Shown here one piece after another: positions 3,302 to 22,163 of a DNA stretch of 64,000 bases; the stretch's first letter is position 1; the number at the start of each line of letters is the position of its first letter. The stretch covers positions 64,001 to 128,000 of the IMG/VR virus record IMGVR_UViG_3300044846_005100, one strand, 5' to 3'. Origin of the DNA: a virus. Below the pieces are notes generated by a model. It did no database searches and was not told where the DNA came from. It was given only the letters and a program-made list of their open reading frames with translations. Position numbers and translations under genes: made by a program.

Positions 3302-3508
3302 TTAATTTTCAAATGGTGAATCATGTTTAGGTTGAACAAGTTTACTTTTCAATAATTTTTCACTCATATCTTTATTTTTACTTCGTTCCAATACAACAGC
3401 AACCCTACCATGATCCATAGTAGCTGTTACTGATTCAACTCTCCAACCATCATCTATATATTTTTGGATGATTTCTTGATTGTTACTTATTATAAATTTC
3501 TGTTCCAT
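3302..3508 (-). CDS. hypothetical protein
   Basis: 68 aa ORF with A-rich leader; DGWRVESV motif. Confidence 0.7.
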   Translation of the reverse strand: MEQKFIISNNQEIIQKYIDDGWRVESVTATMDHGRVAVVLERSKNKDMSEKLLKSKLVQPKHDSPFEN

Positions 3509-3532
3509 TTAATTTTAATTTAATTTTTTAAA

Positions 3533-3608
3533 AAGACTACACAAAGACTAAGTTGTTTATTTCAAATATAAGAATAGTGTTATTTGATTAGCCTTTGTGT
3601 ATCATCTT
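3533..3608 (-). terminator. long intergenic hairpin (terminator or processing site)
   Basis: Arms 3533-3551 and 3588-3608 are complementary; T-run follows on the minus strand. Confidence 0.5.
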
Positions 3609-3621
3609 GGGTTATTTCTTT

Positions 3622-4434
3622 TTAAATTGTTTTCCATTTCCAATCACAGCTTGATTCTGATTTTGTTTGGCAAGTAAATATATTATAAGATTCTCTCCAA
3701 TTTGCTAGATAAACAATACCCTCTGGACTTTTTACTAATAATTCAACGTGTATTGGGGGTGTTTCTTCGTAAACTGTTTTCCATCTATCTTGTTCTTGTT
3801 GCCATTTAGCACCTTTAATAAACATTAATTTTTCTCTATCACAATAAGGATGAGTTATACTTTGGCAGTTTAAAATAGCAGCTTCTTCATCTATCTCTTG
3901 TTTATCCCTTTTACTGTTCAACCAATCTGTTAATGATTCTTTAGTTTCTTTAGATAATGCATTGTCTAATTTAGATTCAAGTTTTTCAAGATTTAATGGT
4001 TCTTGTTTAGGTTCTTCTTGTTTACCACAAGCACATCCATATTTACTAATAGCTTGTTTACAATTTTCACAAATTTGTTTAGTTTCTTCTTGTGGGATGA
4101 TTATTTTTCTTTTTAAATTACCATAATATGGTGGAACATCTATATCTTCTTCAAATGTTCTATACATACCATAACGTGGCTCTAATTTAATCTCAACATA
4201 TTCACAACTTGGGTTTTTTACAAACCATTCTAAAAAAGTATCATCAATAGATTGTACGCCATCTTCAATTAGCAAATTATTAGTAGTAAGTATTACTTTA
4301 TAAGCATATTGACCATTTCTATTTTTTAAAATATCTCCTGTAAATGAGCATTTTGCCCATATTCCATTTTGATTAACTTTTTCATTGTTATCTATTATAT
4401 ATAACTCGTCTTGTATTTTGTATAAATTTTTCAT
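3622..4434 (-). CDS. conserved phage protein (LEWFVKNPSCE family), apparently missing its N-terminus
   Basis: KVILTT...DGVQSIDDTFLEWFVKNPSCEYVE; mosaic C-terminus (FIKGAKWQQEQ). Confidence 0.75.
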   Translation of the reverse strand: MKNLYKIQDELYIIDNNEKVNQNGIWAKCSFTGDILKNRNGQYAYKVILTTNNLLIEDGVQSIDDTFLEWFVKNPSCEYVEIKLEPRYGMYRTFEEDIDVPPYYGNLKRKIIIPQEETKQICENCKQAISKYGCACGKQEEPKQEPLNLEKLESKLDNALSKETKESLTDWLNSKRDKQEIDEEAAILNCQSITHPYCDREKLMFIKGAKWQQEQDRWKTVYEETPPIHVELLVKSPEGIVYLANWRESYNIFTCQTKSESSCDWKWKTI

Positions 4435-4994
4435 ATTTTAGGTAAATTAAGGTGTTTCCAATATCTATTTGTTCTAATACCATCTATTGTACTGTAAGAT
4501 ATGTTATAGCTTTCTGACAATTCTTTTGTTGTAGTTCCTCTTTGCAACAAAGAATGTATTTTAATAACATCTACATCTTTTAATTTAGAATTACGATTTT
4601 CTTCTCCTTTTAAGGTTAAATTGTTTTTAATAGCGTGGTCTAAATTCTCTCTATGAGAAACCCATTCTAAATTTTCAATAGCATTATCAGTTTTATCTCC
4701 ATTAATATGGTTTACTTGAAGTTTAGATTCAGTATTATCTATAAAATGTTCTGCTACAAGTCTATGAACAAGTACCATTTTTCTTGTTGCATTTTTTTGT
4801 AAAACAACAGTTAAATAACTTTTACTTTGAGGAGATAATTTAAGTAATCTTTCTTTTCTTGAAAATTCATTTCCTAAAGATTTTACATTTCCAAAATTAG
4901 AAACTTGATAAAATGTTTCATAACCTATAATATCTTTCCAAGTTTCTTTACTAGGTTTTTTCGTTGGTAAAACCCATATATTTTTTTCTTCCAT
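4431..4994 (-). CDS. NUMOD4-HNH homing endonuclease
   Basis: ETWKDIIGYETFYQVSNFGNVKS (NUMOD4); VHRLVA...VNHINGDKTDN...NLEW..H.EN (HNH_3); C-terminal HTH. Confidence 0.92.
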   Translation of the reverse strand: MEEKNIWVLPTKKPSKETWKDIIGYETFYQVSNFGNVKSLGNEFSRKERLLKLSPQSKSYLTVVLQKNATRKMVLVHRLVAEHFIDNTESKLQVNHINGDKTDNAIENLEWVSHRENLDHAIKNNLTLKGEENRNSKLKDVDVIKIHSLLQRGTTTKELSESYNISYSTIDGIRTNRYWKHLNLPKI

Positions 4995-4999
4995 AATTA

Positions 5000-5263
5000 T
5001 TATTTTAAAATAATTGTTGATTGATTATAATTACTTTTACCACTACTTTGATTTGTTACAATGACTTCAGGAGTTTCTGTATTAGAATCTAATGGAATCA
5101 TAATCCAAACAGCTTTACTATAATTAGATGGAGATATTTGTAAAAACTTATATTGTTTTCCATTAATTTCATATATAGAGTGAGGAGTACTTATTACTTC
5201 TCCTTCATCATAACAAGAAGTTAATAATGCAATTGATGCTAATACTAATAATAATTTTTTCAT
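5000..5263 (-). CDS. lipoprotein
   Basis: Start reassigned to MKKLLLVLASIALLTSC (lipobox Cys). Confidence 0.75.
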   Translation of the reverse strand: MKKLLLVLASIALLTSCYDEGEVISTPHSIYEINGKQYKFLQISPSNYSKAVWIMIPLDSNTETPEVIVTNQSSGKSNYNQSTIILK

Positions 5264-5273
5264 GATTTTAATT

Positions 5274-5618
5274 TTAATTTTTTTGAAAAATTCCAAATAC
5301 ATTATGTTGTGTTCTATCTAAAATAAGTGTATGTTTTAAAACTTTAAGTCCAACATCACTTGGTTCATATAATCTTACAGTATCTTTATGAGTAAAGTAT
5401 TCAAACTCCAATCCTGTAAATGATATATATCCACTTTCATAATCTCCTTCTTTAATACAAGGATACCAATTAAATCCACTCCAATATTGAATACCAAAAC
5501 TATTCTGATTGAATCTGAATTTTTTATTATTGGTTGAAATGTAATTTTCAATTGGGTTTTCATATACTTTACCACAACTAGACAAAGTAATAATTAAGAT
5601 AACTAATAGTTTTTTCAT
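5274..5618 (-). CDS. lipoprotein
   Basis: MKKLLVILIITLSSC lipobox. Confidence 0.75.
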   Translation of the reverse strand: MKKLLVILIITLSSCGKVYENPIENYISTNNKKFRFNQNSFGIQYWSGFNWYPCIKEGDYESGYISFTGLEFEYFTHKDTVRLYEPSDVGLKVLKHTLILDRTQHNVFGIFQKN

Positions 5619-5639
5619 GATTTTAATTTTTAATTAAAA

Positions 5640-6125
5640 AAAATACTCCAACCTATCTACTCGTCAGTAGCATCAGTTGGAGGGTTCTCCGCTTATTTTC
5701 TTCGTCAGAGTGCTAAGACCTATCCGCAGTGAGCATTGCTAAGAGGCTTGACAGGTACTATTCAATAAGAGGTTTCATTGTTTCTAAATAAACAATTACG
5801 TTATTGAAAAAATTCCCTTCCTTTATACGTTGTATAGGGATAACCACTCATTGCAATTTTAAAGAAATTATCTTTACAGCATTGCGAGTATCATTAAAAA
5901 CTTACATAGCCATCAAGACTTGGGATAAAATTTGGATTGTTTAACTGCCTTACTCAAGCTATTCTCACTCAATTGGGGATTCAGCTCCATTTTACCATAC
6001 TCAACAAACATAACACCTCTTGATAGTGTTGTAATGACACTGGGGACAATTTACAGGAATCGAACCATACCCATCTACCAATTCATACATTACTTGTTTG
6101 TCTTTCTCTATGTAAGTCTTTTTTT
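5640..6125 (-). ncRNA. candidate large structured RNA with tRNA-like loops
   Basis: No credible ORF; 14-bp helix AAAGACTTACATAG/CTATGTAAGTTTTT encloses nested stems and GGTTCGATTCC; ends in a hairpin plus T-run. Confidence 0.6.
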
Positions 6126-6128
6126 TTA

Positions 6129-6578
6129 TTACATCAACAATAAAAGATTGTTATTTGGGCTTACCAAAACAGATTTTGTAGGAATAACTTTGTCTTGATT
6201 ATTTTTCAAGTATGTTGAAAATTTGTTATTACCAAATAACATTTCTTCTGCATCTTGAGAGGAATTTGGGATACCTTTAACATAAGCATAAGGGTATCCT
6301 GAACAAATAGCCCCTTCAGAGTAAAAAGTAACTTTTGTTTTATAAAAACCTATTTCTCCACTTCCTCTTTTTTTATAAGCTAATATAACCTTATCTTGAT
6401 ATTCTGGAGGTATGCACGCTGAATAAATATTTCCTTCAAAATCAAATTTAGGTAAGATTACTACAACTATATCCGTTATAGGGTCAAGAGGAAGTTCCTC
6501 TATTCCATGTTCATTAAAAATATTTAGGACTTTTTCAGATGCATCCTGAGCAACTAAATTTACTCTTAATTTTCCCAT
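6129..6578 (-). CDS. hypothetical protein
   Basis: 149 aa ORF in operon. Confidence 0.75.
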   Translation of the reverse strand: MGKLRVNLVAQDASEKVLNIFNEHGIEELPLDPITDIVVVILPKFDFEGNIYSACIPPEYQDKVILAYKKRGSGEIGFYKTKVTFYSEGAICSGYPYAYVKGIPNSSQDAEEMLFGNNKFSTYLKNNQDKVIPTKSVLVSPNNNLLLLM

Positions 6579-6584
6579 ATCTTA

Positions 6585-6920
6585 TTATTTTGAAAAGTAT
6601 TTGTTAAAAGTTTCTTGTTTCACTTTTAATTCTACTTCCAAAAGAGCTTTTTGGTATTCAGCATTTATGATTTTTTCAAATCTTTCTTGACACTCCGCTT
6701 TGGTAATAGCTGACTTACCTGAATTTAAGTCTGTTTCTAAAGTAAAGTCTTCCAATTCAAAAATAGTGTCCTCAAGGGTCTCTATTTTAGTCTGAATAGT
6801 GTCTAATACTTCTTTTTGTAAGTCTCTTTTAATAGAGACTTCAAATTTACTTGCTCTTTCTTTTACTGATTTGTTTTGAGACATTAAAGTGTTTGCTCTG
6901 CTCATTATTTCTTTTGCCAT
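6585..6920 (-). CDS. hypothetical coiled-coil protein
   Basis: 111 aa helical ORF. Confidence 0.75.
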   Translation of the reverse strand: MAKEIMSRANTLMSQNKSVKERASKFEVSIKRDLQKEVLDTIQTKIETLEDTIFELEDFTLETDLNSGKSAITKAECQERFEKIINAEYQKALLEVELKVKQETFNKYFSK

Positions 6921-6947
6921 AAAAATTTGTTTTATTTTGTTAATAAA

Positions 6948-7340
6948 TTAAAGTTGTATTCCTAAGATTTCAAGGCTTATTTCATCCCATTTAGTGTCTG
7001 CTCTAAATCGTGTATCTGCTTCACCAGCAAAACATTCAATTTCTTCCTCTAATCCGTTTTCATAGGTTAAAATTAAAGTAGGAGTTGCCCAATTTGAAGA
7101 CAAATAAGTGTAATTATCATTAGTGGGCTTGCCTTTTTCAAAAATTTCACCACCTGTGAAATCCCAATCACCTTCTAAACCTGCCTCTGCTTCTAAAGTA
7201 GGATGCTCCTTAAATCTCTCTTTAATAATAGAGGCGGCTTTATCCCAATCAAAAGCTCTTTGAGGTCTACCTTGTCTCCCTGCAATCTTTGCATTATTTC
7301 CCATGAATCCTTCCGCAAAGGTAAAATTACTTTCTTTCAT
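6948..7340 (-). CDS. conserved phage hypothetical protein
   Basis: FDWDKAA..II...AEAGL..DW..TGG motif. Confidence 0.8.
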   Translation of the reverse strand: MKESNFTFAEGFMGNNAKIAGRQGRPQRAFDWDKAASIIKERFKEHPTLEAEAGLEGDWDFTGGEIFEKGKPTNDNYTYLSSNWATPTLILTYENGLEEEIECFAGEADTRFRADTKWDEISLEILGIQL

Positions 7341-7344
7341 TGTT

Positions 7345-7700
7345 TAAATTTTAATATGAATAATTAGCACCCTATTCTACTACTTGCGTTTGCTACCTCG
7401 ACCAGGTTTCCGTAATAGAATAGGGTCACAATAGTTGTGAGTGTGTAGTTTAATCTACCATTTAGTTTCATCTAACTATCTTGCTGATAACTCCCAATAC
7501 CATAGCATTTACATTCCGCTACATTAAACAAGCATATATCATGTATCTTGTGTGTATTCTGCATATTACTATGCAGTTTCAATCAGGGTTTAGATTATTT
7601 TAAGTTAATAATTTTTTTCTATGGGCTACTAAACCTTTTATAGTAGCAAATTTTTTCAAAAAAAAATGTCAATGAACGCTATTCCCCGAAGGGATTTTAT
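7345..7700 (-). ncRNA. structured non-coding leader or ncRNA
   Basis: Series of hairpins including CTGCATA-GTAA-TATGCAG and a 15-bp stem 7369-7426 capped by a junction. Confidence 0.5.
7666..7695 (-). promoter_or_regulatory. boxB/boxA-like antitermination element
   Basis: Minus strand ATCCC-TTCG-GGGAAT hairpin followed by AGCGTTCATTGACAT. Confidence 0.5.
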
Positions 7701-7710
7701 TTTGATTTGT

Positions 7711-7887
7711 TTAAGACTCTCTCAAACAAATTTCTTTTTTTCTTTCTTCTTGGTAATGATACCAATCTTTTTGTGTTTTTGTTAAAGGCTTTTCTTTTTT
7801 ATCTCTCTCGGAAGCTAAGTATCCTTCATCATAAATCCTTGCATATACTTTAGGAAAAACTTTTTCGATTATTTTTTTTACTACCAT
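7711..7887 (-). CDS. hypothetical protein
   Basis: Start reassigned to MVVKK, downstream of the promoter. Confidence 0.6.
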   Translation of the reverse strand: MVVKKIIEKVFPKVYARIYDEGYLASERDKKEKPLTKTQKDWYHYQEERKKEICLRES

Positions 7888-7906
7888 GATATATTTTTTA
7901 AGGGGT

Positions 7907-7937
7907 TGCAAAATTAATACTATTTTTTTTTAATCAA
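7907..7937 (-). promoter_or_regulatory. canonical Bacteroidetes sigma-A promoter
   Basis: TTG-N18-TAATTTTG on the minus strand. Confidence 0.7.
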
Positions 7938-7949
7938 CGTATTTTTTTT

Positions 7950-8333
7950 CTATTCCTGATAAAATTCAATATAAGTGTCCGAATGCCAAATTCTTATCAT
8001 ACTGATTTTTTTGAAAATTTGTACCTTAATCACTTTGTTCATCTCATCCAAATAACGCTGATAGGTATAAGGTGTTCCGTTTTCAGTAGTTCCTTCTTCA
8101 ATTTCTCCAAAAGGAGTGAATACTTCTGATGCTCCTCCAACTATAACCATCTTTATTTTAGGAGAGCAGTTATAATTCACATAAAACAAAACCTGCTTAT
8201 TTATCATTCTTTTCTCCTCTGTGAGCCTTTTTTGTGCTATAAGGGTAGTTGTGTTCATTAAATACTCATCGCATTGAGAGAAGGCATTAAATGAAGCCAA
8301 AATAGAGATTAATATTATTGTTATTTTTTTCAT
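7950..8333 (-). CDS. secreted hypothetical protein
   Basis: Signal peptide MKKITIILISILASFNAFSQ. Confidence 0.75.
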   Translation of the reverse strand: MKKITIILISILASFNAFSQCDEYLMNTTTLIAQKRLTEEKRMINKQVLFYVNYNCSPKIKMVIVGGASEVFTPFGEIEEGTTENGTPYTYQRYLDEMNKVIKVQIFKKISMIRIWHSDTYIEFYQE

Positions 8334-8337
8334 CTGA

Positions 8338-8709
8338 TTAGTTTTTAAAACTGATTGTTAAATTTTCTATTGAAACCATATTATTTTCAAAATACTTTGT
8401 TTCTTTGTAGAATCCTTCAAGAAATTCTTTTGTATCTAAAGGTAGAGAATCAAAATGTCTTCTGATTTTAGCCCTTGTCTTTGACTTTTTAAATTTATCC
8501 TTACAATACAAATATTTTTCGGTAAGTCTTTTGTACAAAAATATAGGCTCTACCATTGATAATAATTCTTTTATTGTTTCGGTTTCTTTCAGCTTAACAA
8601 TAAAATCTTTTGCCTGCTCAAAGGTATCAAAGATTTCAGTAGAATATACTACTATTTCTTCTCCGATTTTTTCCAATGCTATAAAGCCGATTGTTTTTAA
8701 TTTTAACAT
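8338..8709 (-). CDS. hypothetical protein
   Basis: 123 aa ORF in tight operon. Confidence 0.7.
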   Translation of the reverse strand: MLKLKTIGFIALEKIGEEIVVYSTEIFDTFEQAKDFIVKLKETETIKELLSMVEPIFLYKRLTEKYLYCKDKFKKSKTRAKIRRHFDSLPLDTKEFLEGFYKETKYFENNMVSIENLTISFKN

Positions 8710-8719
8710 AATTTTAAAT

Positions 8720-9268
8720 TTAAGAAATTATTGAATGAAACTTTTTTAAACTACACTCTGATAATAAAATATTTTTCTTGTTATTTGCTTCAATATTAAT
8801 GCCTGATGCTGATTCTATTATTAAATAGTCTGCTTCGGTTTGTTGTAAAATATTTTGAAAAGGAATATGTGAAGAACCCGAAGAGATTTCCACTATAAAA
8901 ATAGGTTCTTCATCTCCTTTATAAGAATTATTTTTAACTCTAAATCTTTTTATTGTAAAAGCACTATTGTTTTCTAACATAGTGTATAAGTCGGTAGCGG
9001 ATTTAGTAGTGGTAGCCAAAGGAATATTTAAAGTGAAAATAATTTCTATCTTTACTATTTCCTTATAAGAAGTAATTACAAAATCTAACATGGTGTTTTC
9101 TCCCTCTGCAATAGCTTCTTTCAAGTCAGTTTCACTCCAGCCATACTCGAATATTTCATCGTCAGCTTGTTCATCTTGTTCAGCATCGTCATACTCTTTA
9201 ACAATGTAACCATTAATCTCTGACTTATCATCTTTCCAATATCCTTCTATTTCAAAATACTTACTCAT
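8720..9268 (-). CDS. hypothetical protein with acidic N-domain
   Basis: YFEIEGYWKDDK...FVITSY. Confidence 0.75.
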   Translation of the reverse strand: MSKYFEIEGYWKDDKSEINGYIVKEYDDAEQDEQADDEIFEYGWSETDLKEAIAEGENTMLDFVITSYKEIVKIEIIFTLNIPLATTTKSATDLYTMLENNSAFTIKRFRVKNNSYKGDEEPIFIVEISSGSSHIPFQNILQQTEADYLIIESASGINIEANNKKNILLSECSLKKFHSIIS

Positions 9269-9275
9269 AATATTA

Positions 9276-9872
9276 TTATTTTATTTCAATTAATTCTCCA
9301 TTTTCATTTTCCATGTATTGAGCATCTTCGGGGTCTTCCCATTCTGTATAGTAATACACTTCGTTTTTGTAAGCCTCTTCAAGCAATTTTTTATCACTAA
9401 CATTGGCTGAATCGGGATTACTTTCTCTCAAATATTCTATCAAATATTTTTCTTCTGAAAAGTATTTTTCCCCATCCATAACACAATATCCCTCATTCAT
9501 ACCTTTACCTGTGGCATCACATTTTCTAGCGAAAAAAGTAGTAGAACCTACAACATCCTCGATAGATAACTCCACACTCTCAAAGTAATCTGAACTATCA
9601 TTTTTGTATTCGGTGTAAATGTAAATACTATTAGAATAAACTATCAATTGGATGATATTTGTTCTCCATTCAGTTTCTTCATCCTCATCATCAAAAAACT
9701 TAACATCCCCATCAATATCAACCCTCATATTACTGATAAAAGGATTTTGTTTTATAAGTTCTTGACAGACAGTTATTCTGCCTTTATCTACATCTGTAAA
9801 GTTGATTCCAATAGAGTGGACATCATAACTATTTCCGTTTTCGGTAGAATACCCTTTTAATACTTTTTTCAT
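9276..9872 (-). CDS. acidic two-domain hypothetical protein
   Basis: C-terminal ARKCDATGKGMNEGY...YYYTEWED. Confidence 0.75.
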   Translation of the reverse strand: MKKVLKGYSTENGNSYDVHSIGINFTDVDKGRITVCQELIKQNPFISNMRVDIDGDVKFFDDEDEETEWRTNIIQLIVYSNSIYIYTEYKNDSSDYFESVELSIEDVVGSTTFFARKCDATGKGMNEGYCVMDGEKYFSEEKYLIEYLRESNPDSANVSDKKLLEEAYKNEVYYYTEWEDPEDAQYMENENGELIEIK

Positions 9873-9881
9873 GGATGTATA

Positions 9882-10112
9882 TTATTTAGTTAATGTGAAA
9901 AATTCGTGTAAATCATAAATGTCAAATAAATGCTCATCTTCTTGGTCATCTATAATAATAATAGCTTCTTTAGCATAAGGATTTTCAGGTTCAAATCCTA
10001 TAATAGGATATGCTTTCCCTATGGTTAAGGCTTCTTCTCTTGTGCTGTGCATTACACATTTTTGTATTGCATACAAGTTAGTACCTATTTCTAAATCTCC
10101 TCTTTCTATCAT
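9882..10112 (-). CDS. small acidic SH3-like hypothetical protein
   Basis: LTIGKAYPI...IIDDQEDEH; first gene after a boxed promoter. Confidence 0.7.
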   Translation of the reverse strand: MIERGDLEIGTNLYAIQKCVMHSTREEALTIGKAYPIIGFEPENPYAKEAIIIIDDQEDEHLFDIYDLHEFFTLTK

Positions 10113-10145
10113 AACATTATTGTTTTTGTTGGTTAAAAAATATGA

Positions 10146-10214
10146 TGCAAAATTACTGCTTTTCGTGTTGGGTGTGTTAGCAATTTTGTTGCAAAAACTT
10201 TAAAAATTGTTGCA
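10146..10214 (-). promoter_or_regulatory. early promoter with tandem TGCAACAA boxes (copy 6)
   Basis: TAATTTTGCA at 10146-10155; boxes at 10186 and 10207. Confidence 0.8.
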
Positions 10215-10223
10215 AAAAAATAT

Positions 10224-10415
10224 TTATATATCTTTTGCAATTTTTACGAGTTCTGCAAATTCCCGATAAGACAATATTTTTCGCTCCATATTGGTTAATC
10301 CTAAATACTTGTAGTCAATATCCTCAAAGCTATACACAAACATTCTCCCGATGGCTTTATATGTAGTGGTTTTAACCAATCTATACCCAAATAATCCTAA
10401 AATAAATTTTATCAT
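10224..10415 (-). CDS. hypothetical protein
   Basis: 63 aa ORF in operon. Confidence 0.65.
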   Translation of the reverse strand: MIKFILGLFGYRLVKTTTYKAIGRMFVYSFEDIDYKYLGLTNMERKILSYREFAELVKIAKDI

Positions 10416-10422
10416 AATTTTT

Positions 10423-10776
10423 TTATTTGTTTTTTAATAATAAATTAATTTGTTCTAATTGTGCTTCTTTTACAAATTGATAATCTTCTGCACCAACTGC
10501 ATTTTCCAATACCTCTTCAATTCCGTCTTCAAATCTATTGTAGCCTACAATTTTTCCGTCTCCTGCATTAATTATTTTTGCACATTCAGCATAATCATCC
10601 TCCCAAAGAGCAAAACACAATTTCTTTCCAAAGGCAATGTTATACACATACTTCGGGCATCTTATTTCTTTTTCAAGGTCAAACAATGCTTGTCCTACTT
10701 CGTCATCGTGCTGAAATAGGTCATATAATTCCATTTTGTTTTTTAATGCTTCAAATTTTTCTTTAATGTTTTTCAT
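10423..10776 (-). CDS. hypothetical protein
   Basis: 117 aa acidic ORF. Confidence 0.7.
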   Translation of the reverse strand: MKNIKEKFEALKNKMELYDLFQHDDEVGQALFDLEKEIRCPKYVYNIAFGKKLCFALWEDDYAECAKIINAGDGKIVGYNRFEDGIEEVLENAVGAEDYQFVKEAQLEQINLLLKNK

Positions 10777-10782
10777 TTGCTT

Positions 10783-11016: not shown

Positions 11017-11022
11017 AATTTT

Positions 11023-11253: not shown

Positions 11254-11256
11254 AAA

Positions 11257-14172: not shown

Positions 14173-14201
14173 ATTTTATTATTATTGGTTAAAAAATATA
14201 G

Positions 14202-14429: not shown

Positions 14430-14460
14430 TTTTTATGCTTTTATTGTGAAATAATTTTGA

Positions 14461-14817: not shown

Positions 14818-14818
14818 T

Positions 14819-15064
14819 TTAACAATAATTTAGTATAAAATTTATTAATTTTTCATCAACTCCTTTAGCCTCCAATTCTCTATAAACATGGTCAGCATCT
14901 AAGCATTCACTTATCCACTTGTTACCATTTATATCTAAAAAGCCTATAACATATCCACTATTCATTTCTCCTTCAACTTCGGGAGTTTTCCAAAAGCCTG
15001 CCATTGAAATTTGTTCGTTTGGGGTGCTTATCGACACACATTTCTTAAAATCTATTTCTTGCAT
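14819..15064 (-). CDS. hypothetical protein
   Basis: 81 aa ORF in operon. Confidence 0.7.
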   Translation of the reverse strand: MQEIDFKKCVSISTPNEQISMAGFWKTPEVEGEMNSGYVIGFLDINGNKWISECLDADHVYRELEAKGVDEKLINFILNYC

Positions 15065-15072
15065 AATTTTAG

Positions 15073-15642
15073 TTATTTATTTTGATTATAATGTTCAACA
15101 AAAGAAACACAACCATTGAAAACTCCTTCGATATTCAAATCCGCCAATGAATAATAAATTTTTTCATAATCTTCCCCCATAAATTCACTTAATGAATAAC
15201 ATTTTTTTACCACTTCTACAAGCAAATTCCAATCCGAATCGTATTTTAAATATCTTGCAATATTCTCAATTATCTTTTCTTTTTCTATTTCTCGTGTGAA
15301 ATAATAAGGGCTATCACTCCATGAATAATGCCCTCCATGATATGAAAGATTATCAAATACTCCCATAAATTCTGCCAACAATTGTTTTTTTGCTACTATG
15401 TCCGTAATGGAAACTATTTCTTTTAACTCAATTTGAGATAAATCCATATCTATTGTAAATCCTAAGGTAACATCACAACTATTAAAAACATGATTTGCTT
15501 TTTCAAGATTATAAGTAATCTCTTTTTTTGCCATTTCTAAAGCCTCTTCTCTACTATCTGTATATACTACTCCATTATCGAAAGAAGTCCATATTGTGCT
15601 TGTAGTTAAGCTATATTCCCATTTTTTGTTTGATTGATTCAT
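15073..15642 (-). CDS. two-domain hypothetical protein
   Basis: C-terminal LLAEFMG...KYDSDWN. Confidence 0.75.
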   Translation of the reverse strand: MNQSNKKWEYSLTTSTIWTSFDNGVVYTDSREEALEMAKKEITYNLEKANHVFNSCDVTLGFTIDMDLSQIELKEIVSITDIVAKKQLLAEFMGVFDNLSYHGGHYSWSDSPYYFTREIEKEKIIENIARYLKYDSDWNLLVEVVKKCYSLSEFMGEDYEKIYYSLADLNIEGVFNGCVSFVEHYNQNK

Positions 15643-15653
15643 TTTTTTAATTT

Positions 15654-15989
15654 TTAATAAGTTAAACTATCTAAATAAGTGCTTGGAAATTCCCACGTTA
15701 TATCCTCATAAACTCGTTCTACAAATTCATTGATAAATTTATCATCTATTGTAGGCATAACTCCGTCATAGGATTCTAATAGATATTCCTTTGCTTCTTC
15801 TTTGTTAAGCCAATTAGTAACAACTTCTTTTATTCTATTCCTACTATAAACATCGTCTATATCCTCTGCATTTTCGGGAATATAACAAGGTGCATCGGGG
15901 TTATTTTTGAAATTTTCATCGTTATAATACCCTCCCTCCGCATTGGATTCTAAGCCGTATTTTTCTATTATTGTATTTAAATTTTCCAT
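15654..15989 (-). CDS. acidic hypothetical protein
   Basis: CYIPEN...WEFPSTYLD. Confidence 0.75.
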   Translation of the reverse strand: MENLNTIIEKYGLESNAEGGYYNDENFKNNPDAPCYIPENAEDIDDVYSRNRIKEVVTNWLNKEEAKEYLLESYDGVMPTIDDKFINEFVERVYEDITWEFPSTYLDSLTY

Positions 15990-16255
15990 TTTATATTTAA
16001 AATTGATAAAGATTTTAAAAAATTAATAACTTTTTCTTTTTCTTCTTGTGTAGCCTTCGGGAACATACCATAGTCAGAAGTAAAAAAGCTACTACCTACA
16101 AATCCTAAATTGTTTTCTTCCATTTCAAAAGATATATCTTGTATCTCGTAACAATCAATTGGCTCATCTCCCCAAAATAACTTATTTTCAGCATCCGCCA
16201 TAGTTACTATATGAATATTTCCATTAATGTTTAAAAATTCTATAATTTGCTCCAT
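15977..16255 (-). CDS. hypothetical protein
   Basis: 92 aa ORF. Confidence 0.7.
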   Translation of the reverse strand: MEQIIEFLNINGNIHIVTMADAENKLFWGDEPIDCYEIQDISFEMEENNLGFVGSSFFTSDYGMFPKATQEEKEKVINFLKSLSILNIKWKI

Positions 16256-16257
16256 AC

Positions 16258-16524
16258 TTATTTGTTTAAATGATTATTACCTAATAAAATTATATCTGTC
16301 TCTATTATATCTTCTTTGGTATTAAACTCTTGAAATCTTAAATCAAAATTAAGATTATTATCTACTAATAATTTTATATATTGATTCATTTCTTCAATTT
16401 GCCAAATTTCAAAAAATTCATCGGGTTTTACTCCTGCAATTCCATTTGTTTTATCGCACCAAATAGTATAATAAAATGTATTTTTATCTTTTACTGATTC
16501 TAATAAGTTTTTTAAATTTTCCAT
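16258..16524 (-). CDS. hypothetical protein
   Basis: 88 aa; first gene after a boxed promoter. Confidence 0.7.
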   Translation of the reverse strand: MENLKNLLESVKDKNTFYYTIWCDKTNGIAGVKPDEFFEIWQIEEMNQYIKLLVDNNLNFDLRFQEFNTKEDIIETDIILLGNNHLNK

Positions 16525-16557
16525 TTTTTATGATTTTTACTTGTTAAATAATTTTAC

Positions 16558-16626
16558 TGCAAAGTTACTGCGGATTCTATTCTCAATGTTAGCAATTTTG
16601 TTGCAATTTTATTAATTTTTGTTGCA
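16558..16626 (-). promoter_or_regulatory. early promoter with tandem TGCAACAA boxes (copy 3)
   Basis: TAACTTTGCA 16558-16567; boxes at 16598 and 16619. Confidence 0.8.
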
Positions 16627-16634
16627 ACTTTATT

Positions 16635-16952
16635 TTAATTATTTTTTATTGTGTTTGGTTTAGGCTCTGCCATACTATCCTTTGAGGCACTACCTCCTTC
16701 GGGAACAACAAAGTCTTTTTTATCACTATTATAATAATACTTTTCTGCTTCCTCTATCTCGTGTACATAGGCTAATTTCAAATCTATCTCTCCGTTTTCT
16801 ATGCACATGAGTCTAATTAGTTTATCGGGTGCATAGTCTTCGGGTATTACCTCCACTCCCATGATAGGAAAAATTATTTTGGTGCTTTCAGGTACATATA
16901 CCATTGGCGTACCTGCCTTGCAACACTTAATTAATTCTTTTATAGTCTTCAT
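16635..16952 (-). CDS. hypothetical protein
   Basis: 105 aa ORF. Confidence 0.7.
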   Translation of the reverse strand: MKTIKELIKCCKAGTPMVYVPESTKIIFPIMGVEVIPEDYAPDKLIRLMCIENGEIDLKLAYVHEIEEAEKYYYNSDKKDFVVPEGGSASKDSMAEPKPNTIKNN

Positions 16953-16955
16953 ATT

Positions 16956-17636
16956 CTATTGATTTTCTACTTTTTTATAGATACTCTCTCCGTTGCTAAA
17001 CGTTGCTAAACGTCCGTACTCTTCACTTGATTCTTTAAAGGCTTTTTCTACCATTTCAATTGCTTCTGCCTTTGTTTTTTCTACCCATTTAACTATGTTT
17101 TTAGCTTGCATAGCTTTTAAGCCTGCGTTCATTTCTGTAGTATATAAAAACTCCTCTTCCACTCTGTCCTCGTCTATTTCATAGCCGTTTATCATAACAT
17201 CATATTCCCAATCCAATGTAGCACCCTCGTAATAACCTGCCACGAGTTGCATTGTTATTTCAAAGGTACATTCTATATCCCCGAAATTTTTACTTTTTTG
17301 CATTTCAAAGAAATTTGTACAAGGATAATTTCTATCCATATCGCATTTATTTACGCAATAGCCATACCATTTTTTATACAAAGGATTTTCTTTTAATTTC
17401 TCGATAGTACAATCTTTTTGATGTTCTATATCATCTAAATCTATCTCTTCGGTTTCTACTCCCTCTGAAAGCATATTGTGTCCACAACTTTGGCACTCGT
17501 TTAATGTATCTAAATCATATTCCCAATCTCTATGTATTTCCTCACAATCTTGACAAACTTTTGTTTGAATCTCTTGGTTTGTAAGTACTACAAAGTAGTT
17601 GCTTGCGTTTGTTTTTGCGAAATTACTTGCACCCAT
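16956..17636 (-). CDS. conserved Bacteroidetes-phage early protein with Zn ribbon
   Basis: MGASNF, CxxC x2, GYYEGATLD, FSNGESIY. Confidence 0.75.
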   Translation of the reverse strand: MGASNFAKTNASNYFVVLTNQEIQTKVCQDCEEIHRDWEYDLDTLNECQSCGHNMLSEGVETEEIDLDDIEHQKDCTIEKLKENPLYKKWYGYCVNKCDMDRNYPCTNFFEMQKSKNFGDIECTFEITMQLVAGYYEGATLDWEYDVMINGYEIDEDRVEEEFLYTTEMNAGLKAMQAKNIVKWVEKTKAEAIEMVEKAFKESSEEYGRLATFSNGESIYKKVENQ

Positions 17637-17642
17637 ATTTTT

Positions 17643-17891
17643 TTATTTTTTAGTGTTATTTAATGTTTTTCTGAAATAATATTGTTCAATGTATCTCAAA
17701 GTATCTATAGCTTTAGATGATATTCTATCTTTGCCTATTTCAAACCCTATACTTTTAAGATAGGCTTTCTTTGTTTCTATACTATGAATATCTAAAAGAT
17801 TTTGACTATTTAGCCAATTAAAATAATGTGTATTTTCAATTGGAATACTTGTATCTATATCTTTAATTTTGAATAACGTATTTTTAGCCAT
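17643..17891 (-). CDS. hypothetical protein
   Basis: 82 aa ORF. Confidence 0.65.
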   Translation of the reverse strand: MAKNTLFKIKDIDTSIPIENTHYFNWLNSQNLLDIHSIETKKAYLKSIGFEIGKDRISSKAIDTLRYIEQYYFRKTLNNTKK

Positions 17892-17914
17892 TTTAAGCGT
17901 GTTTATTTTTGTTT

Positions 17915-17945
17915 TGAATAAGAACGCCCACTCAAGGACGTTCTG
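17915..17945 (-). terminator. hairpin, possible intrinsic terminator
   Basis: Minus strand AGAACGTCC-TTGAGT-GGGCGTTCT followed by TATT. Confidence 0.5.
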
Positions 17946-17970
17946 TTTAAATTTGCTATATTAGAGTAGC

Positions 17971-18381
17971 TTAATTGATAGTAGGTAGATAGTTTAAAAA
18001 ATAATCTTCATCAAACCATTGCATAGTACCTTTATAATTATCATTGTATATTAATACTCCATTTGATTCAATTGATTCATAGTGTACCAATACGGCTATG
18101 GACTCTTGAAACGTGTCCTTACAAAGTATTTTTGTAGTGTCAAACAATATAGTGGCTAATTCCTCTACAAAAAAGTCTACATAAATTTTAACCACAATTG
18201 TAGGTTCTATTTGTAGCACTCCATTGGATTCATATTTACCTTCTCGCAATTGGCACAATATTTCAGTATTGTTTGCTTTTAAGCCTCCATACAATTCAAT
18301 GATTCTGTCTTTTGTTTTTTCAAAATCTAATTTGCCTAACGTTCCAATATTCATACCAACGTTTAATTCTATTTTACGCAT
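17971..18381 (-). CDS. putative S-adenosylmethionine lyase (T3 SAMase-like anti-restriction protein)
   Basis: Start MRKIEL after the promoter; GKYE...EPTIVV...LC...QESIAV...GVLIY parallels T3 SAMase GCYRE...EKTVRV...AC...QDCVLV...GLVY. Confidence 0.6.
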   Translation of the reverse strand: MRKIELNVGMNIGTLGKLDFEKTKDRIIELYGGLKANNTEILCQLREGKYESNGVLQIEPTIVVKIYVDFFVEELATILFDTTKILCKDTFQESIAVLVHYESIESNGVLIYNDNYKGTMQWFDEDYFLNYLPTIN

Positions 18382-18414
18382 GTTTTTTTCTTTTTTAATG
18401 ATTAATAAATATGA

Positions 18415-18482
18415 TGCAAAATTACTACCTTTGTGTATTGTGTCCAACAAGTTTTGTTGCAAAAAACACAACTTTTGTTGCA
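18415..18482 (-). promoter_or_regulatory. early promoter with tandem TGCAACAA boxes (copy 2)
   Basis: TAATTTTGCA 18415-18424; boxes at 18454 and 18475. Confidence 0.8.
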
Positions 18483-18486
18483 ATTC

Positions 18487-18717
18487 TTAATAAGTTTTAT
18501 TTTTATATAGGCTTGAAATTCTTTGGTTACGCACCCTTGTATTTGTCTTTCTTACTGAAATTCTTATCATTTCAATAAAAGATACTACCAAAAATAAACA
18601 TCCATAAGATACAATAAAGATATAAATATCAAAGTGCAATATATCTAAAATCATTGCGTATGTACTTGATATTATTGTTATTGTGCTAATAGCCAGCACT
18701 AAAATTGTTTTTTTCAT
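18487..18717 (-). CDS. small two-TM membrane protein
   Basis: Two hydrophobic helices and a basic tail. Confidence 0.7.
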   Translation of the reverse strand: MKKTILVLAISTITIISSTYAMILDILHFDIYIFIVSYGCLFLVVSFIEMIRISVRKTNTRVRNQRISSLYKNKTY

Positions 18718-18864
18718 TTTACTTTAATTTAATTTTTTTTATTAATACACGTTTCACATTGGAGGCATAAACCTAATTTATGTTTTTCTACAAAAAATAC
18801 ATTTTTACACGTATTATTTATGCAAAGTATTGGATATTTTTTCATTTTACTTTAATTTAATTTT
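18709..18864. repeat. 28-bp direct repeat flanking a small ORF
   Basis: TTTTTTCATTTTACTTTAATTTAATTTT at 18709-18736 and 18837-18864. Confidence 0.8.
18729..18845 (-). CDS. tiny Cys-rich (Zn finger-like) protein, 38 aa
   Basis: MKKYPILCINNTCKNVFFVEKHKLGLCLQCETCINKKN*. Confidence 0.55.
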   Translation of the reverse strand: MKKYPILCINNTCKNVFFVEKHKLGLCLQCETCINKKN

Positions 18865-18975
18865 GTTAAGTTTTTCTAAAATTAATACTATAAAAACTAT
18901 AAATATATACACTAAACAAGGTATAGTTGCTATTTTTAAGTCTGTGAACAAAAGTTCTTTTAATTCTACTATCAT
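18847..18975 (-). CDS. tiny single-TM protein, 42 aa
   Basis: MIVELKELLFTDLKIATIPCLVYIFIVFIVLILEKLNKIKLK*. Confidence 0.55.
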   Translation of the reverse strand: MIVELKELLFTDLKIATIPCLVYIFIVFIVLILEKLNKIKLK

Positions 18976-18977
18976 TT

Positions 18978-19217
18978 TTAATCTATTATTTCATTACCAA
19001 ACGTGTCTAAATTTTTACCCTCAAGTATATATATCATTGCTTCAAGGCTTTCATCCCCCCCGAATCCTTCTTCTTTTTCATGTACCTGCTTATATCTTAT
19101 CTCTATAGCTTTTTTAGCTTGTTGTTTTGATAGGTATGCACCTAAAAGTAAGCCCACCCCGAAACATATAATAAACATCCCGAATAAATTGTAATAGTTT
19201 AAACTTGTCTTTTTCAT
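18978..19217 (-). CDS. small membrane protein
   Basis: N-terminal TM helix. Confidence 0.7.
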   Translation of the reverse strand: MKKTSLNYYNLFGMFIICFGVGLLLGAYLSKQQAKKAIEIRYKQVHEKEEGFGGDESLEAMIYILEGKNLDTFGNEIID

Positions 19218-19247
19218 TTTGATTATATTTTAAGTTGTTATTTAATA

Positions 19248-19496
19248 TTAATTTTCTACTATTTCATTTTCAAAAATAGATTGATACTTTTTTGGTAGTT
19301 TTTTATACTTTGTAATTTTGTGTCCACTACTCCATGAATTTATGAACGTCTCAAGGATAACAAACGAATTATTTAAGCCACTTAGCACCCAATGCCCCGA
19401 ACCCAAAACTCCCTCGTTAAATTGGTGCGCTATGCCCCCTTTATCAATATAATCATTGATTAATTTGTCCGCAGTTTGATAATTGTATAATTTCAT
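19248..19496 (-). CDS. conserved phage hypothetical protein
   Basis: EGVLGSG...E.FINSWSSGH...Y.KLPKKY. Confidence 0.75.
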   Translation of the reverse strand: MKLYNYQTADKLINDYIDKGGIAHQFNEGVLGSGHWVLSGLNNSFVILETFINSWSSGHKITKYKKLPKKYQSIFENEIVEN

Positions 19497-19533
19497 ATCT
19501 TTATAATTTTAAGTTGTTATTATTTTAAATTTT

Positions 19534-19941
19534 TTATATTGTACTTTTTGAATAATTATTTACCAATTCTTTTATCTGATTTTCACTATATTTTTTGCAA
19601 ACATACTCCAATGCTTCTGAAATACTTGTAGCGTTTGGTACTTTTATAGTGGCTTTTGTTTTTAAATGTAGTGTATTTAATTCGGGTGCATATTTATGTA
19701 CCTCCAATCCAATTACTTTATTTTCAATCAAAGATAGTTTTTTCAATTCAAACGCTAAATTTACCACCTCTATAGTGAAATTAAATTTTTGAATATTTTC
19801 GGACGTTAAAGCCTCTAATTTGTCTATATTTTGAGTATAATAGTCAATCCTTAGCTTTTTAGCTTTTAACCCGAATTTGCCCTTACAATTCACTTTGTAT
19901 ATGCAATTTTTTACTAATTCTAATTTGTGTAATTTATTCAT
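19534..19941 (-). CDS. hypothetical protein
   Basis: Start reassigned to MNKLHK. Confidence 0.65.
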   Translation of the reverse strand: MNKLHKLELVKNCIYKVNCKGKFGLKAKKLRIDYYTQNIDKLEALTSENIQKFNFTIEVVNLAFELKKLSLIENKVIGLEVHKYAPELNTLHLKTKATIKVPNATSISEALEYVCKKYSENQIKELVNNYSKSTI

Positions 19942-20021
19942 ATTTTTTATTTTTACTACTTGCACCCCGAAAGGTGCAACGCTTTTGGCTTAAAGTCTAT
20001 TTATAGTTGCCAAAACAACTT

Positions 20022-20186
20022 TTAGTGTATTATAACTCCATTCGGAGTACGTTCGATTTTTTTGCCTATAGATTCTAAATATCTATAGTATTCGGCTTTA
20101 TTCATAGTATATCCACCATTATTTGAATATCCTACACTACTTGGAACGTTTGACACTTGTGTTTCTTTTTTTTGATTTTGTACCAT
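20022..20186 (-). CDS. small protein, 54 aa (not in ORF track)
   Basis: MVQNQKKETQVSNVPSSVGYSNNGGYTMNKAEYY...NGVIIH*; paralog of the 13158 N-terminus. Confidence 0.75.
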   Translation of the reverse strand: MVQNQKKETQVSNVPSSVGYSNNGGYTMNKAEYYRYLESIGKKIERTPNGVIIH

Positions 20187-20219
20187 TTTGATTATAATTT
20201 AAATTTATGAATAATTTGT

Positions 20220-20528
20220 TTAATTTGATTGAATTTTGCCATTTTTTACATCTATAATACCTTTAGGTATTTCCCCCCCTCTAAACATTACTTTTTGCCA
20301 CATTGGATAAAAGCACCCCGAAAAATATCTTACCGCAAAACAAGTACTATCAATTGCAATTAGTTTGTAATAGTTAGCCGAAACTCCAATTTCATTATCC
20401 ATGAATTTTGTAGTATTTGAGAAACCGTTGCCAAACCCCCTGCTATTATCTACAAGTCCATTTTTTTCTAATTGTAGCCAATTTGCTTTTGTTAAATCGT
20501 AAAAAACTAAATTTTTGTTATCTATCAT
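20220..20528 (-). CDS. hypothetical protein
   Basis: VRYFSGCFYP motif. Confidence 0.7.
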   Translation of the reverse strand: MIDNKNLVFYDLTKANWLQLEKNGLVDNSRGFGNGFSNTTKFMDNEIGVSANYYKLIAIDSTCFAVRYFSGCFYPMWQKVMFRGGEIPKGIIDVKNGKIQSN

Positions 20529-20539
20529 TTTAATATAAT

Positions 20540-20707
20540 TTAATTTTGTGAATTTTGTTTTAATTCCTTAATAATAGTTTTAATACCACCTTGTAAATAT
20601 CCTATAGTATAGGCATGAGACACTTTTTTTTCAGTAAATTGTGTTTCACTATCTTGTAAAAGACTTTCCAAAGTTTTTAAAATTGCATTTTTTTGTTGAT
20701 TTTTCAT
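20540..20707 (-). CDS. small protein, 55 aa (not in ORF track)
   Basis: MKNQQKNAILKTLESLL...SHAYTIGYLQGGIK; preceded by the repeated leader motif. Confidence 0.65.
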   Translation of the reverse strand: MKNQQKNAILKTLESLLQDSETQFTEKKVSHAYTIGYLQGGIKTIIKELKQNSQN

Positions 20708-20734
20708 TTTGATTATATTTTAATTTGTGAATAA

Positions 20735-21070
20735 TTAGTTTAATGTTATTAAAAAGTGTCTATCAAATTTATACCCTAATTCCTTAGCTATGTTATTGCA
20801 CGCCTTTAGCCAAAGGCTTGTATATAGCACCATTTTTGGACTTGTAGGATATTGTGTACCTAAATACCACAATATAGTATCTTTATTATCTATTTGACTT
20901 TGCAAACATTTGTATTTGTGCATAGATTCGCTTAACTCGCTTTTTGCCTCGTTTAACGTTTCACAATCTTTGAAAATAACATCCCAAACACTTTGTTCTA
21001 AATTATCATTGCTTTTAATAGCACCGCTTTTAATCATTGCAAATTTTGCTTTTTTACTTAATTTTTTCAT
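20735..21070 (-). CDS. first early gene, hypothetical
   Basis: Start reassigned to MKKLSKKAK with the repeated A-rich leader. Confidence 0.65.
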   Translation of the reverse strand: MKKLSKKAKFAMIKSGAIKSNDNLEQSVWDVIFKDCETLNEAKSELSESMHKYKCLQSQIDNKDTILWYLGTQYPTSPKMVLYTSLWLKACNNIAKELGYKFDRHFLITLN

Positions 21071-21197
21071 TTTATATTTTTTTAAGTTTTTAAATATTGT
21101 GTTTAACAGGAAACATAGTACACCCATTCACTTTTTGACATACCTCTAGCAGTAGCCTTTTAGTGCTTATGTACCAATCCCTCCCGATTAATAACAA

Positions 21198-21266
21198 TGC
21201 AAATATACAACATTCCGCACCCCTATTCCTACAACTTTTGTTACACAAAATAGTAATTTTGTTGCA
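21198..21266 (-). promoter_or_regulatory. early promoter with tandem TG(C/T)AACAA boxes (copy 1)
   Basis: TATATTTGCA 21198-21207; boxes at 21238 and 21259. Confidence 0.75.
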
Positions 21267-22163
21267 AAAGTAAAATAATTTCACAAAGGCTTCTATCCCC
21301 TCCCTCCCGAATATTTGCTATAATGGATAATAGAGAGGCAATCCACAGAGAGGCTATAATGGATGAATATACGGAGTTTGTCCTATACCCAACTCTATAT
21401 TCTCCCACTCGATACAAAATCGTGGCTTAGAACGCAAATATGGAGGTCATTATATTTCATCCACTGAAATATTTACACAACTCCCCCGAATTTTCCCCGA
21501 ATCATATCATAATAAACTCCCCTCGATTGGGTTAAGTAATTACCGCCCCCACTTGTGTAGCGTACCGCCCGAACGTCCGCCCCTTGCCCTTTGTATATTG
21601 TACTAATGGAACGCACCGAGTACCCACGTCTATACATTGCCTTATATAACTACCGCCTTATATATGTATAAACTAACTCAAGCCTCCGCCACCACCACCC
21701 ACGCACCCGAACAAGTGCCACGAGTGCCACCCCCTCGTCTCGATTCGTCCGCCTCGATTCGTTCCGAGTGCCTCCGCCACGTCCTCCGCACCTCCTCCGA
21801 GTTATTTTTTTTTGGGTATGCAAAAACTCCACAGAACTTTTCTCAAGGGGGGATTTCAAAATTGGGCTTTGTATGGTGGGCTTCGTAGGGAGGATACCCC
21901 ATTTTTTATCCACACAAACCATTTCGGGTATGTGAGTAAAAAAAATAAAATGGTGATATGGGGGTGATGATTATTTTTTATCCTCATATATGATTTTGGG
22001 TAGAGGGTAAAAAAATTTTAGGGGGTGGGGGTATGGATCTTTTTTTTGGATTTTTTCTGGGTGATTTTTTAGGCTATTTTGGATATTCAAAAACTGCACA
22101 TAAATAAATAAAGAAGGGATAAAAAAAGTGCCCAGTAAAATCAAGGGTTCCGAGAGGGCAAAA

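Follow-up and report, generated by a model that had tools for sequence, protein, structure and literature searches.

A GATC-free 18.6-kb block in an uncultured lake-water crAss-like phage as a possible restriction-avoiding leading arm

Why should a phage with 132 GATC sites in the rest of its genome carry none in a single contiguous interval of 18.6 kb? The question is raised by a stretch of 64,000 nt (the window) that corresponds to bases 64001-128000 of one 140,223-bp IMG/VR virus record, IMGVR_UViG_3300044846_005100; coordinates below are those of the window unless marked as contig or genome positions. The record includes an uncultured crAss-like phage with a guanine-plus-cytosine (GC) content of 29%, which extends over 99 kb from contig position ~41.2 kb to the contig end and is designated G000 in comparisons with four long relatives, including G001, G002 and G004. 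The GATC-free interval lies inside a block of small open reading frames (ORFs) bordered by the replication module and by a divergent switch of gene orientation (Table 1). The sequence data presented here suggest that this site-free stretch may meet host restriction enzymes before the remaining DNA is protected.

Exact search located GATC at position 3412 and then at 22036, 22613, 22809, 22951 and 22988, in agreement with a preliminary description of the window, made by eye, that had reported no GATC from 3416 to 22035 and frequent GATC from 22 kb onward. A maximal-order Markov model built on the block itself predicts 36.6 sites. Shuffling of synonymous codons among the block ORFs, with proteins and codon usage preserved, gives an expectation of 23.1 +/- 3.7 for the whole block (minimum of 11 in 300 shuffles) and of 22.2-22.8 for the block coding sequence alone. 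The Poisson probability of observing no site is 2e-10 to 1e-16. The same description had roughly estimated from base composition that a few dozen sites should be present; under the codon-shuffled null the observed count (0 vs 22-23) is not near the expected density. Among the 136 canonical 4-mers, GATC shows the strongest depletion in the block, with CCAG/CTGG and CTAG next in order, and the non-coding parts of the block are likewise without it. The GC content of the block is 29.4% vs 29.3% elsewhere in the phage, remaining flat at ~29% through the interval, and its codon usage is the same as that of the replication and late modules; with both so alike in block and remainder, the gap cannot be put down to composition. 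Outside the block, the number of GATC sites is as expected in the packaging module (57 vs 58) and moderately low elsewhere, at 27 vs 60 for the replication module and 48 vs 76 for the distal plus arm.

Sites other than GATC are missing as well, with GGCC, GGNCC and AAGCTT absent from nearly one and the same interval (Table 1). The block has no GGCC (4.4-11.5 expected), and 34 sites are situated to the right of the gap, so that the first impression of GGCC being absent here and common on the right holds in the exact counts. In other modules GGCC is over-represented ~2.5-fold relative to the codon-shuffled null (18 vs 7.0 in contig 41-67 kb and 28 vs 11.4 in 86-126 kb), and this excess in the replication and late modules makes the contrast with its absence from the block sharper. 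AAGCTT, with 4.8 sites expected in the block by codon shuffle and none observed, occurs 16-23 times in each other module. The block further contains 0 GGNCC, 1 CCWGG, 6-7 CTAG (24-44 expected) and 7 ACNGT (20 expected).

Avoidance of sites is seen at two tiers. At the first tier, the whole 29%-GC phage (contig 41.2-140.2 kb) is devoid of CCGG (~25-36 expected), GATATC, TTCGAA, ATCGAT, GTCGAC and CTCGAG and has TCTAGA once; these motifs are at normal levels in the 40%-GC arm that makes up the other part of the record. At the second tier, in the block only, GATC, GGCC, GGNCC and AAGCTT are missing too, while CTAG, ACNGT and CCAG/CTGG are scarce. Palindromes are foremost in the list of depleted motifs, and the sense strand is short of CCAG as well as of CTGG, which indicates a pressure on double-stranded DNA, not on mRNA or codons. 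The depletion is thus exerted on the DNA itself, and only within one discrete block.

The depletion is also polar. The right edges of the site-free zones fall at the switch (GATC 22036, CTGG 22057, CCAG 22132, CTAG 22552 and ACNGT 22641), and the 24 residual sites in the block, counted in six equal bins toward the switch, are distributed as 12, 4, 3, 2, 1 and 2. Control motifs show the opposite trend, increasing over the same six bins (p = 1e-5). The common edge at 22.0-22.6 kb, together with the thinning of residual sites, fits a putative virion end near 21.9-22.5 kb.

Expression of the block appears to have its own signals. A predicted promoter element of ~95 nt is present in six copies upstream of minus-strand genes (Table 1); on the sense strand it consists of TTGCAACAAAA-N11-TTGCAACAAAA, a spacer of ~27 nt, TAATTTTGCA and then 30-40 nt to the ATG. 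TAnnTTTG is the -7 box of the Bacteroidota primary sigma factor, and we take TAATTTTGCA to be this box. The 11-mer of the element, counted as a single motif, hardly occurs outside the block: of its copies, 8 of 9 in G000, all 5 in G002 and the single one in G001 lie within it. Short pieces of the element are conserved in relatives. A scan for E. coli-type promoters and terminators gave counts equal to those in shuffled sequences, this consensus being uninformative for a Bacteroidota phage.

In the switch region, two plus-strand -7-box promoters are predicted, the GC skew flips at ~22 kb, and short direct and inverted repeats are densely clustered: GTACATTTTTGTACTTTT, GGGTGACTTAGG and AATAATTATGTTCACAA twice each and TTAGGGGGTG three times. 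We consider the region a candidate genome end and/or origin. Contigs of lake populations from several sequencing runs diverge from the window sequence at 22276-22340. The two copies of GGGTGACTTAGG form a tandem repeat at 22249-22272, which has an extra copy in one lake population (run X2). A different end had been indicated by IMG/VR for the relative G004, in the form of a 123-bp 'direct terminal repeat' at the equivalent of window position 54 kb. We rejected it as a true terminus: a 360-amino-acid ORF spans the junction, so the repeat is an overlap of a circular assembly, recorded as 97.7 kb for a complete genome of ~97.5 kb.

The proteins encoded in the block are nearly all orphans. In searches against PHROGs and Pfam, the block ORFs matched nothing beyond the HNH endonuclease and a single PHROG family without assigned function. 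The proteins of the long acidic run (Table 1) are candidate host-takeover or anti-defence proteins; for these we found no family match, no PDB sequence match and nothing usable in the ESM Atlas. Single-sequence AlphaFold models of two block proteins had predicted local distance difference test (pLDDT) values of 46 and 42. A Pistol self-cleaving ribozyme is situated in the gap between two block ORFs, and therefore the block transcript is probably self-cleaved there. The four ORFs nearest to the switch (21241-22207, minus strand) encode basic, low-complexity products of 54-90 amino acids (isoelectric point, pI, 7.9-11.3) in a locally GC-rich and repeat-rich stretch; they may not be genes. The equivalent area of Cellulophaga phage phi14:2 gives rise to abundant non-coding RNAs (bioRxiv 10.1101/2020.03.07.982082). 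The block coding sequence (7685-21928) is also 6- to 10-fold enriched in CCCGAA/TTCGGG relative to the codon-shuffled null (11 vs 1.9 and 10 vs 0.9), with a change of orientation on the plus strand near 17 kb: TCGGG is dominant at 9.3-16.8 kb, and beyond 17.3 kb, as far as the switch, CCCGA prevails.

Is the pattern maintained in related phages? The flanking modules share 60-96% protein identity with relatives, whereas a tblastn match was found for only 4 of the 47 block ORFs in G001, 14 in G002 and one in G004, which makes the block the hypervariable part of the genome. Cassette replacements inside the block are observed in lake populations, and the block contents of G000, G001 and G002 are largely non-homologous. 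Measured against the codon-shuffled null, ACNGT counts in the blocks of these three phages are 7 (20.2 expected), 1 (8.8) and 1 (12.3), respectively, and AAGCTT counts are 0 (4.8), 0 (2.8) and 0 (4.1). Pooled over the three lineages, ACNGT is found 9 times vs 41 (P = 1e-9) and AAGCTT 0 times vs 11.7 (P = 8e-6); the cores are not depleted. At six loci with block sequences that share 0-53% of 15-mers, AAGCTT is always absent from the block and present 6-9 times in the adjacent plus arm. In a scan for the most significant site-free gaps, those located in the block were for GATC, ACNGT, AAGCTT and GGCC/GGNCC in G000 and for ACNGT, GCWGC, CCWGG and ATTAAT in G002; block gaps in G001 were weak.

Turnover of individual sites can be followed where block sequence is orthologous. 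In the 2.4 kb alignable with G002, that phage has four GATC and four CTAG, and all eight are altered in G000; in a 91%-identical block segment of the two phages three substitutions fall on a site. In the G000 core, GATC sites shared with relatives are retained at the rate of the neutral motif TGCA (e.g. 22/37 vs 27/52), a neutral control which indicates that no purging of the core is under way; in the packaging module, G000 even exceeds its relatives in GATC. Natural variants were also inspected: not one of 40 listed variant letters gives rise to a GATC, GGCC, CTAG or AAGCTT, a comparison of low power with only 0.5 such events expected.

How could a site be tolerated in one part of a genome and lost in another? 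We infer that a difference in exposure to nucleases is required for the same site to kill when it lies in one region and to do no harm when it lies in another. Staged or ordered entry of DNA with defined ends would be the simplest and most economical model of such a difference. As in a leading region, sites are missing from one contiguous region beyond what composition accounts for and are tolerated outside it. First-injected regions are hypervariable, have host-type promoters and are rich in anti-defence genes (PMC12455610), and the block is similar in profile, being hypervariable and having its own family of predicted TAnnTTTG promoters; its orphan ORFs, the acidic run included, may have early or anti-defence roles. 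The reading we prefer, in our judgement an even call, is that the block is a leading, early-expressed accessory arm that enters from the switch end and is under extra, region-limited selection against restriction sites. According to this model, the virion DNA would have defined, fixed ends and would enter from the switch end (~21.9-22.5 kb), bringing the block into the cell first. Host RNA polymerase (RNAP) would fire the six leftward TAnnTTTG promoters, possibly helping to pull the DNA in, and block products, perhaps among the acidic proteins, would neutralise restriction before other DNA follows or is laid open to attack. Which sites are avoided would then mirror the restriction systems of this lineage's hosts, with specificities like those of MboI/DpnII, HaeIII, BfaI, HindIII and Tsp4CI. 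The fuller picture, of a crAss-like phage that delivers its genome in stages, led by an 18.6-kb hypervariable anti-defence arm driven by host promoters, is offered tentatively; we would not call it probable.

Several observations weigh against the leading-arm model. The complete loss of GATC is specific to G000; the blocks of G001 and G002 are near expectation (10/13.6 and 14/20.6, observed/expected), while their cores are depleted 1.3- to 3.3-fold (16/53, 34/87; 39/52, 57/82). The block is therefore not always the cleanest part of the genome, and to accommodate the opposite trend the model needs the extra assumption of a relic depletion in slowly evolving cores combined with fast turnover of the block. 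The gap scan showed no block-specific gaps in G004. Part of the contrast between block and arm for CCWGG, GGNCC, CATG and AGCT originates, as the codon-shuffled null shows, from amino-acid composition. We identified no anti-restriction protein. In the cultured phages crAss001 and phi14:2 avoidance is genome-wide (phi14:2 has 0 GGCC and 1 CCGG), with no regional gaps. Finally, crAss002 packages by headful (PMC8042965), a mode under which a leading region would be impossible, and the leading-region effect was predicted by its authors not to hold for headful packagers (PMC12455610). The preliminary description had read the gap as the signature of a first-injected, restriction-avoiding region. What stands of this interpretation is that the depletion is real, acts on DNA, is limited to the block and coincides with hallmarks of an early, host-takeover arm; for GATC, the cleanliness of the block relative to the core does not extend to G001 and G002.

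The alternatives differ in how much of this evidence they accommodate. A mosaic history, in which the block or its pool of cassettes was imported by recombination from phages avoiding GATC, GGCC and CTAG genome-wide, would make the clean state an inheritance with no need for staged entry. The block is indeed a recombination hot spot, with few homologues in relatives and with cassette swaps in lake populations, and suitable phages exist: crAss001 has 1 GATC, 0 GGCC and 2 CTAG in 103 kb, and L089, L090 and L093 (lake IMG/VR contigs of 70-90 kb with 27% GC), which come from the same kinds of water and have a block gene family distantly in common with G000, are free of GATC and nearly free of GGCC and CCGG through 20 kb that span both arms. 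The opposite GATC trends of block and core in G001 and G002 would also be expected under separate histories. Still, no close donor was found: one mid-block protein is without a relative in IMG/VR, and a protein at the block boundary (ORF 3622-4434) has distant relatives only (<=68% identity; 33-49% amino-acid identity in L089, L090 and L093). Codon usage and GC content of the block equal those of the core, which speaks against import. The G000 block shares its ACNGT- and AAGCTT-poor signature with the blocks of relatives, whereas the GATC-free phages L089, L090 and L093 are without it. The polar gradient toward the switch is not predicted by import, and uniform absence over 47 heterogeneous cassettes, along with targeted loss at orthologous sites, argues for continuing selection. 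We think a mosaic origin, the main rival, rather unlikely on balance. As for chance, or base, codon or amino-acid composition, the vanishing of part of the CCWGG, GGNCC, CATG and AGCT contrast under the codon-shuffled null speaks for such an explanation; for GATC (0 vs 22-37, P <=2e-10, minimum of 11 in 300 shuffles, composition identical to that of the core) it fails, and for GATC, CTAG, ACNGT and AAGCTT it is effectively refuted. We assign it next to no probability.

Selection could also come from the phage itself, if an early nuclease of its own cut host DNA at short sites such as GATC, GGCC and CTAG and the block had to be immune, later DNA being shielded by timing; immunity of this kind was proposed for T5 A1 (bioRxiv 10.1101/866236). 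The sequence pattern predicted is the same as that of the leading-arm model, and several phage nucleases are encoded, including the HNH protein of the block and further HNH enzymes at genome 48.7-50.1 kb. However, no restriction-like nuclease was recognised in the block, and the HNH proteins resemble homing endonucleases. The proposal still requires differential exposure of block and core, which makes it a variant of the leading-arm model, and as a separate cause we regard it as improbable. Avoidance at the level of RNA or regulation, with early mRNAs shunning motifs of host ribonucleases or toxins, or with motifs disturbing transcription of the block, would yield regional avoidance from the timing of expression and dispense with staged entry. 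Some strand-specific pressure does exist: on the sense strand of block genes CTG is found 50 times vs 90 expected (z = -5.5), while CAG is normal (109 vs 112), a depletion for which the restriction model has no explanation. The strongest signals, nevertheless, are palindromes typical of type II enzymes, the non-palindromic CCAG/CTGG is low in both orientations, several unrelated motifs are hit together, and the non-coding parts of the block are free of GATC as well. An origin at the RNA level thus appears very improbable.

To our knowledge, experimental proof that restriction avoidance can be limited to a region exists for T5-like and T7-like phages only, and the DNA delivery of crAss-like phages is essentially unstudied. 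For the crAss-like group, a full-text literature search turned up no account of restriction-site avoidance. Cutting of EcoRI sites in T5 is restricted to those within the first-step-transfer DNA, and a site introduced there sensitises the phage (bioRxiv 10.1101/866236; cited in PMC12455610); the T5 precedent named in the preliminary description is real. The likeness is in a terminal, pre-early segment without the EcoRI sites that are present, and not restricted, elsewhere in the genome. This segment takes up ~8% of the T5 genome, compared with ~13-19% for the block (18.6 kb of the 140-kb contig or of its 99-kb 29%-GC part). T5, however, is a siphovirus; its terminal repeats are 10 kb long, its injection stop signal has been mapped and it encodes A1/A2, none of which was found in the present phage. 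The evidence here consists of sequence statistics only and concerns many more specificities, mostly with 4-5-bp sites. In the T7-like Murciavirus facing the type I restriction-modification system Mme2I, only motifs in the first-injected region matter, and restriction-modification pressure is concentrated on the leading segment (PMC12455610). The early region of T7-like Autographiviridae (with Ocr in T7) is hypervariable, like the block, and is rich in anti-defence genes and equipped with host-type promoters, and entry is slow and coupled to transcription. There, experiments have proven the effect for a type I motif, over a few kb of a podovirus genome of 40 kb. Here, the block is 18.6 kb long, the sites resemble those of type II enzymes, and the phage, which exceeds 100 kb, belongs to another order; a protein like Ocr was not identified.

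Among the Crassvirales, crAss001 and phi14:2 (Steigviridae) have the same opposed arms, with small early genes adjoining the switch and followed by replication genes. They are likewise strong avoiders of palindromes; besides the counts given above, crAss001 (MH675552, 102.7 kb) contains 1 ACGT, 0 GCGC and 1 CGCG. Coliphage N4 (Schitoviridae) is a podovirus that injects a giant virion RNAP and has its early genes at one genome end, and its DNA entry is stepwise and transcription-dependent. Reviews liken the transcription programmes of crAss-like phages to that of N4 (PMC10136315). The earliest genes of crAss001 adjoin the divergent switch at one end of a linear genome with a 576-bp direct terminal repeat (PMC8375218, PMC6235969). 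In phi14:2, early genes are transcribed by the virion RNAP and have no common promoter motif (bioRxiv 10.1101/2020.03.07.982082), in contrast to the repeated host-type promoter element predicted in the block.

The description of the phage as crAss-like is well founded. Its TerL, portal and major capsid proteins match the crAss-type families phrog_6681 (1e-85), phrog_6547 (5e-100) and phrog_11589 (4e-64), respectively, the closest cultured TerL being that of phi14:2 (34% identity), and the two arms, oriented in opposite directions with replication genes in one and structural and putative RNAP genes in the other, match the layout of crAss001 and phi14:2. The minus strand of contig 41-67 kb encodes thymidylate synthase, ribonucleotide reductase, RNA ligase and DNA polymerase; the plus strand from contig 86 kb encodes packaging, structural and giant virion proteins. 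Giant ORFs encode 1661, 1058, 843 and >1699 amino acids, and one of them matches phrog_15100; the DFDxD motif of giant virion RNA polymerase was not found in the available sequence, with the contig stopping within the last ORF (>1699 amino acids). A search of the whole record for four families of DNA methyltransferases found none. Phage DNA was present in 20 public runs (Logan contigs), all of them lake-water metagenomes.

The remaining part of the record, contig 1-41,200, has ~40% GC, and the shift to 29% at 38-43 kb is gradual. In this arm CCGG (50 sites), GATC (192 sites) and 6-bp palindromes are at normal or high density, and it carries 26 tRNA genes and genes for a Ro60/TROVE-vWA protein, two sigma-70 family proteins, a PAS histidine kinase, an acyl-carrier-like protein and a GH19 endolysin. 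The endolysin gene is the only one with homologues in relatives; in G001 and G004 its place is in the plus arm, and the two genes flanking it there stand side by side in G000. This placement suggests that the 40%-GC arm is probably part of this phage, the alternative being a chimeric assembly.

Table 1. Positions of the site-free intervals and other features in the window (aa, amino acids)
Feature	Position	Strand	Remarks
Replication and nucleotide-metabolism module (start), conserved	83..3179	minus	AAA ATPase at 1303-2634; GATC, GGCC, AAGCTT and CTAG present again
GGCC-free interval	1959..22966		flanking GGCC at 1955 and 22967; gap p-values 1e-4 to 2e-4 (with the GGNCC and AAGCTT gaps)
GGNCC-free interval	to 23205		gap scan; nearly same interval as for GGCC
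AAGCTT-free interval	2545-23724		gap scan; nearly same interval as for GGCC
Hypervariable block	3302..22207	minus (all but one ORF)	~47 small ORFs, nearly all orphans; between replication module and divergent switch
GATC-free interval	3416..22035		18,620 bp; exact search; largest GATC gap in the 99-kb phage, p = 2e-9
HNH endonuclease of the block	4431-4994		only block ORF with a match of known function (PHROGs/Pfam)
Run of ~25 consecutive small ORFs, nearly all acidic	8720..17636	minus	pI 4.0-4.7; 14-27% Asp+Glu
Promoter-like element, copy 1	10123..10215	minus	motif
Promoter-like element, copy 2	13004..13096	minus	motif
Promoter-like element, copy 3	14179..14270	minus	motif
Promoter-like element, copy 4	16535..16627	minus	motif
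Promoter-like element, copy 5	18392..18483	minus	motif
Pistol self-cleaving ribozyme (RF02679)	19954-20020	minus	65.1 bits vs gathering threshold 34.5; E = 6e-10; full-length match
Promoter-like element, copy 6	21190..21267	minus	motif; closest to switch, most divergent
Divergent switch region	21923..22515		largely non-coding; common right edge of site-free zones; one dubious 78-aa ORF at 21971-22207
Plus arm	22516..64000	plus	small genes, TerL (30696-32999), portal, major capsid protein, giant virion proteins; packaging-module GATC normal

If the leading-arm model is true, this lineage of crAss-like phages would be predicted to have a genome with defined ends at the strand switch and to deliver its DNA slowly or in stages, and the ~47 orphan genes of the block would become candidates for early anti-defence functions. 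Where selection is strongest on a sub-genomic segment, counts of sites over a whole genome can overlook it. A regional map of missing sites would, if delivery is indeed staged, reveal without any data beyond the sequence which end of the virion DNA leads and what restriction repertoire the host has. As the pattern can be computed from any assembled genome, it may serve as a general in silico indicator of the leading end and of host restriction specificities for thousands of genomes of uncultured phages.

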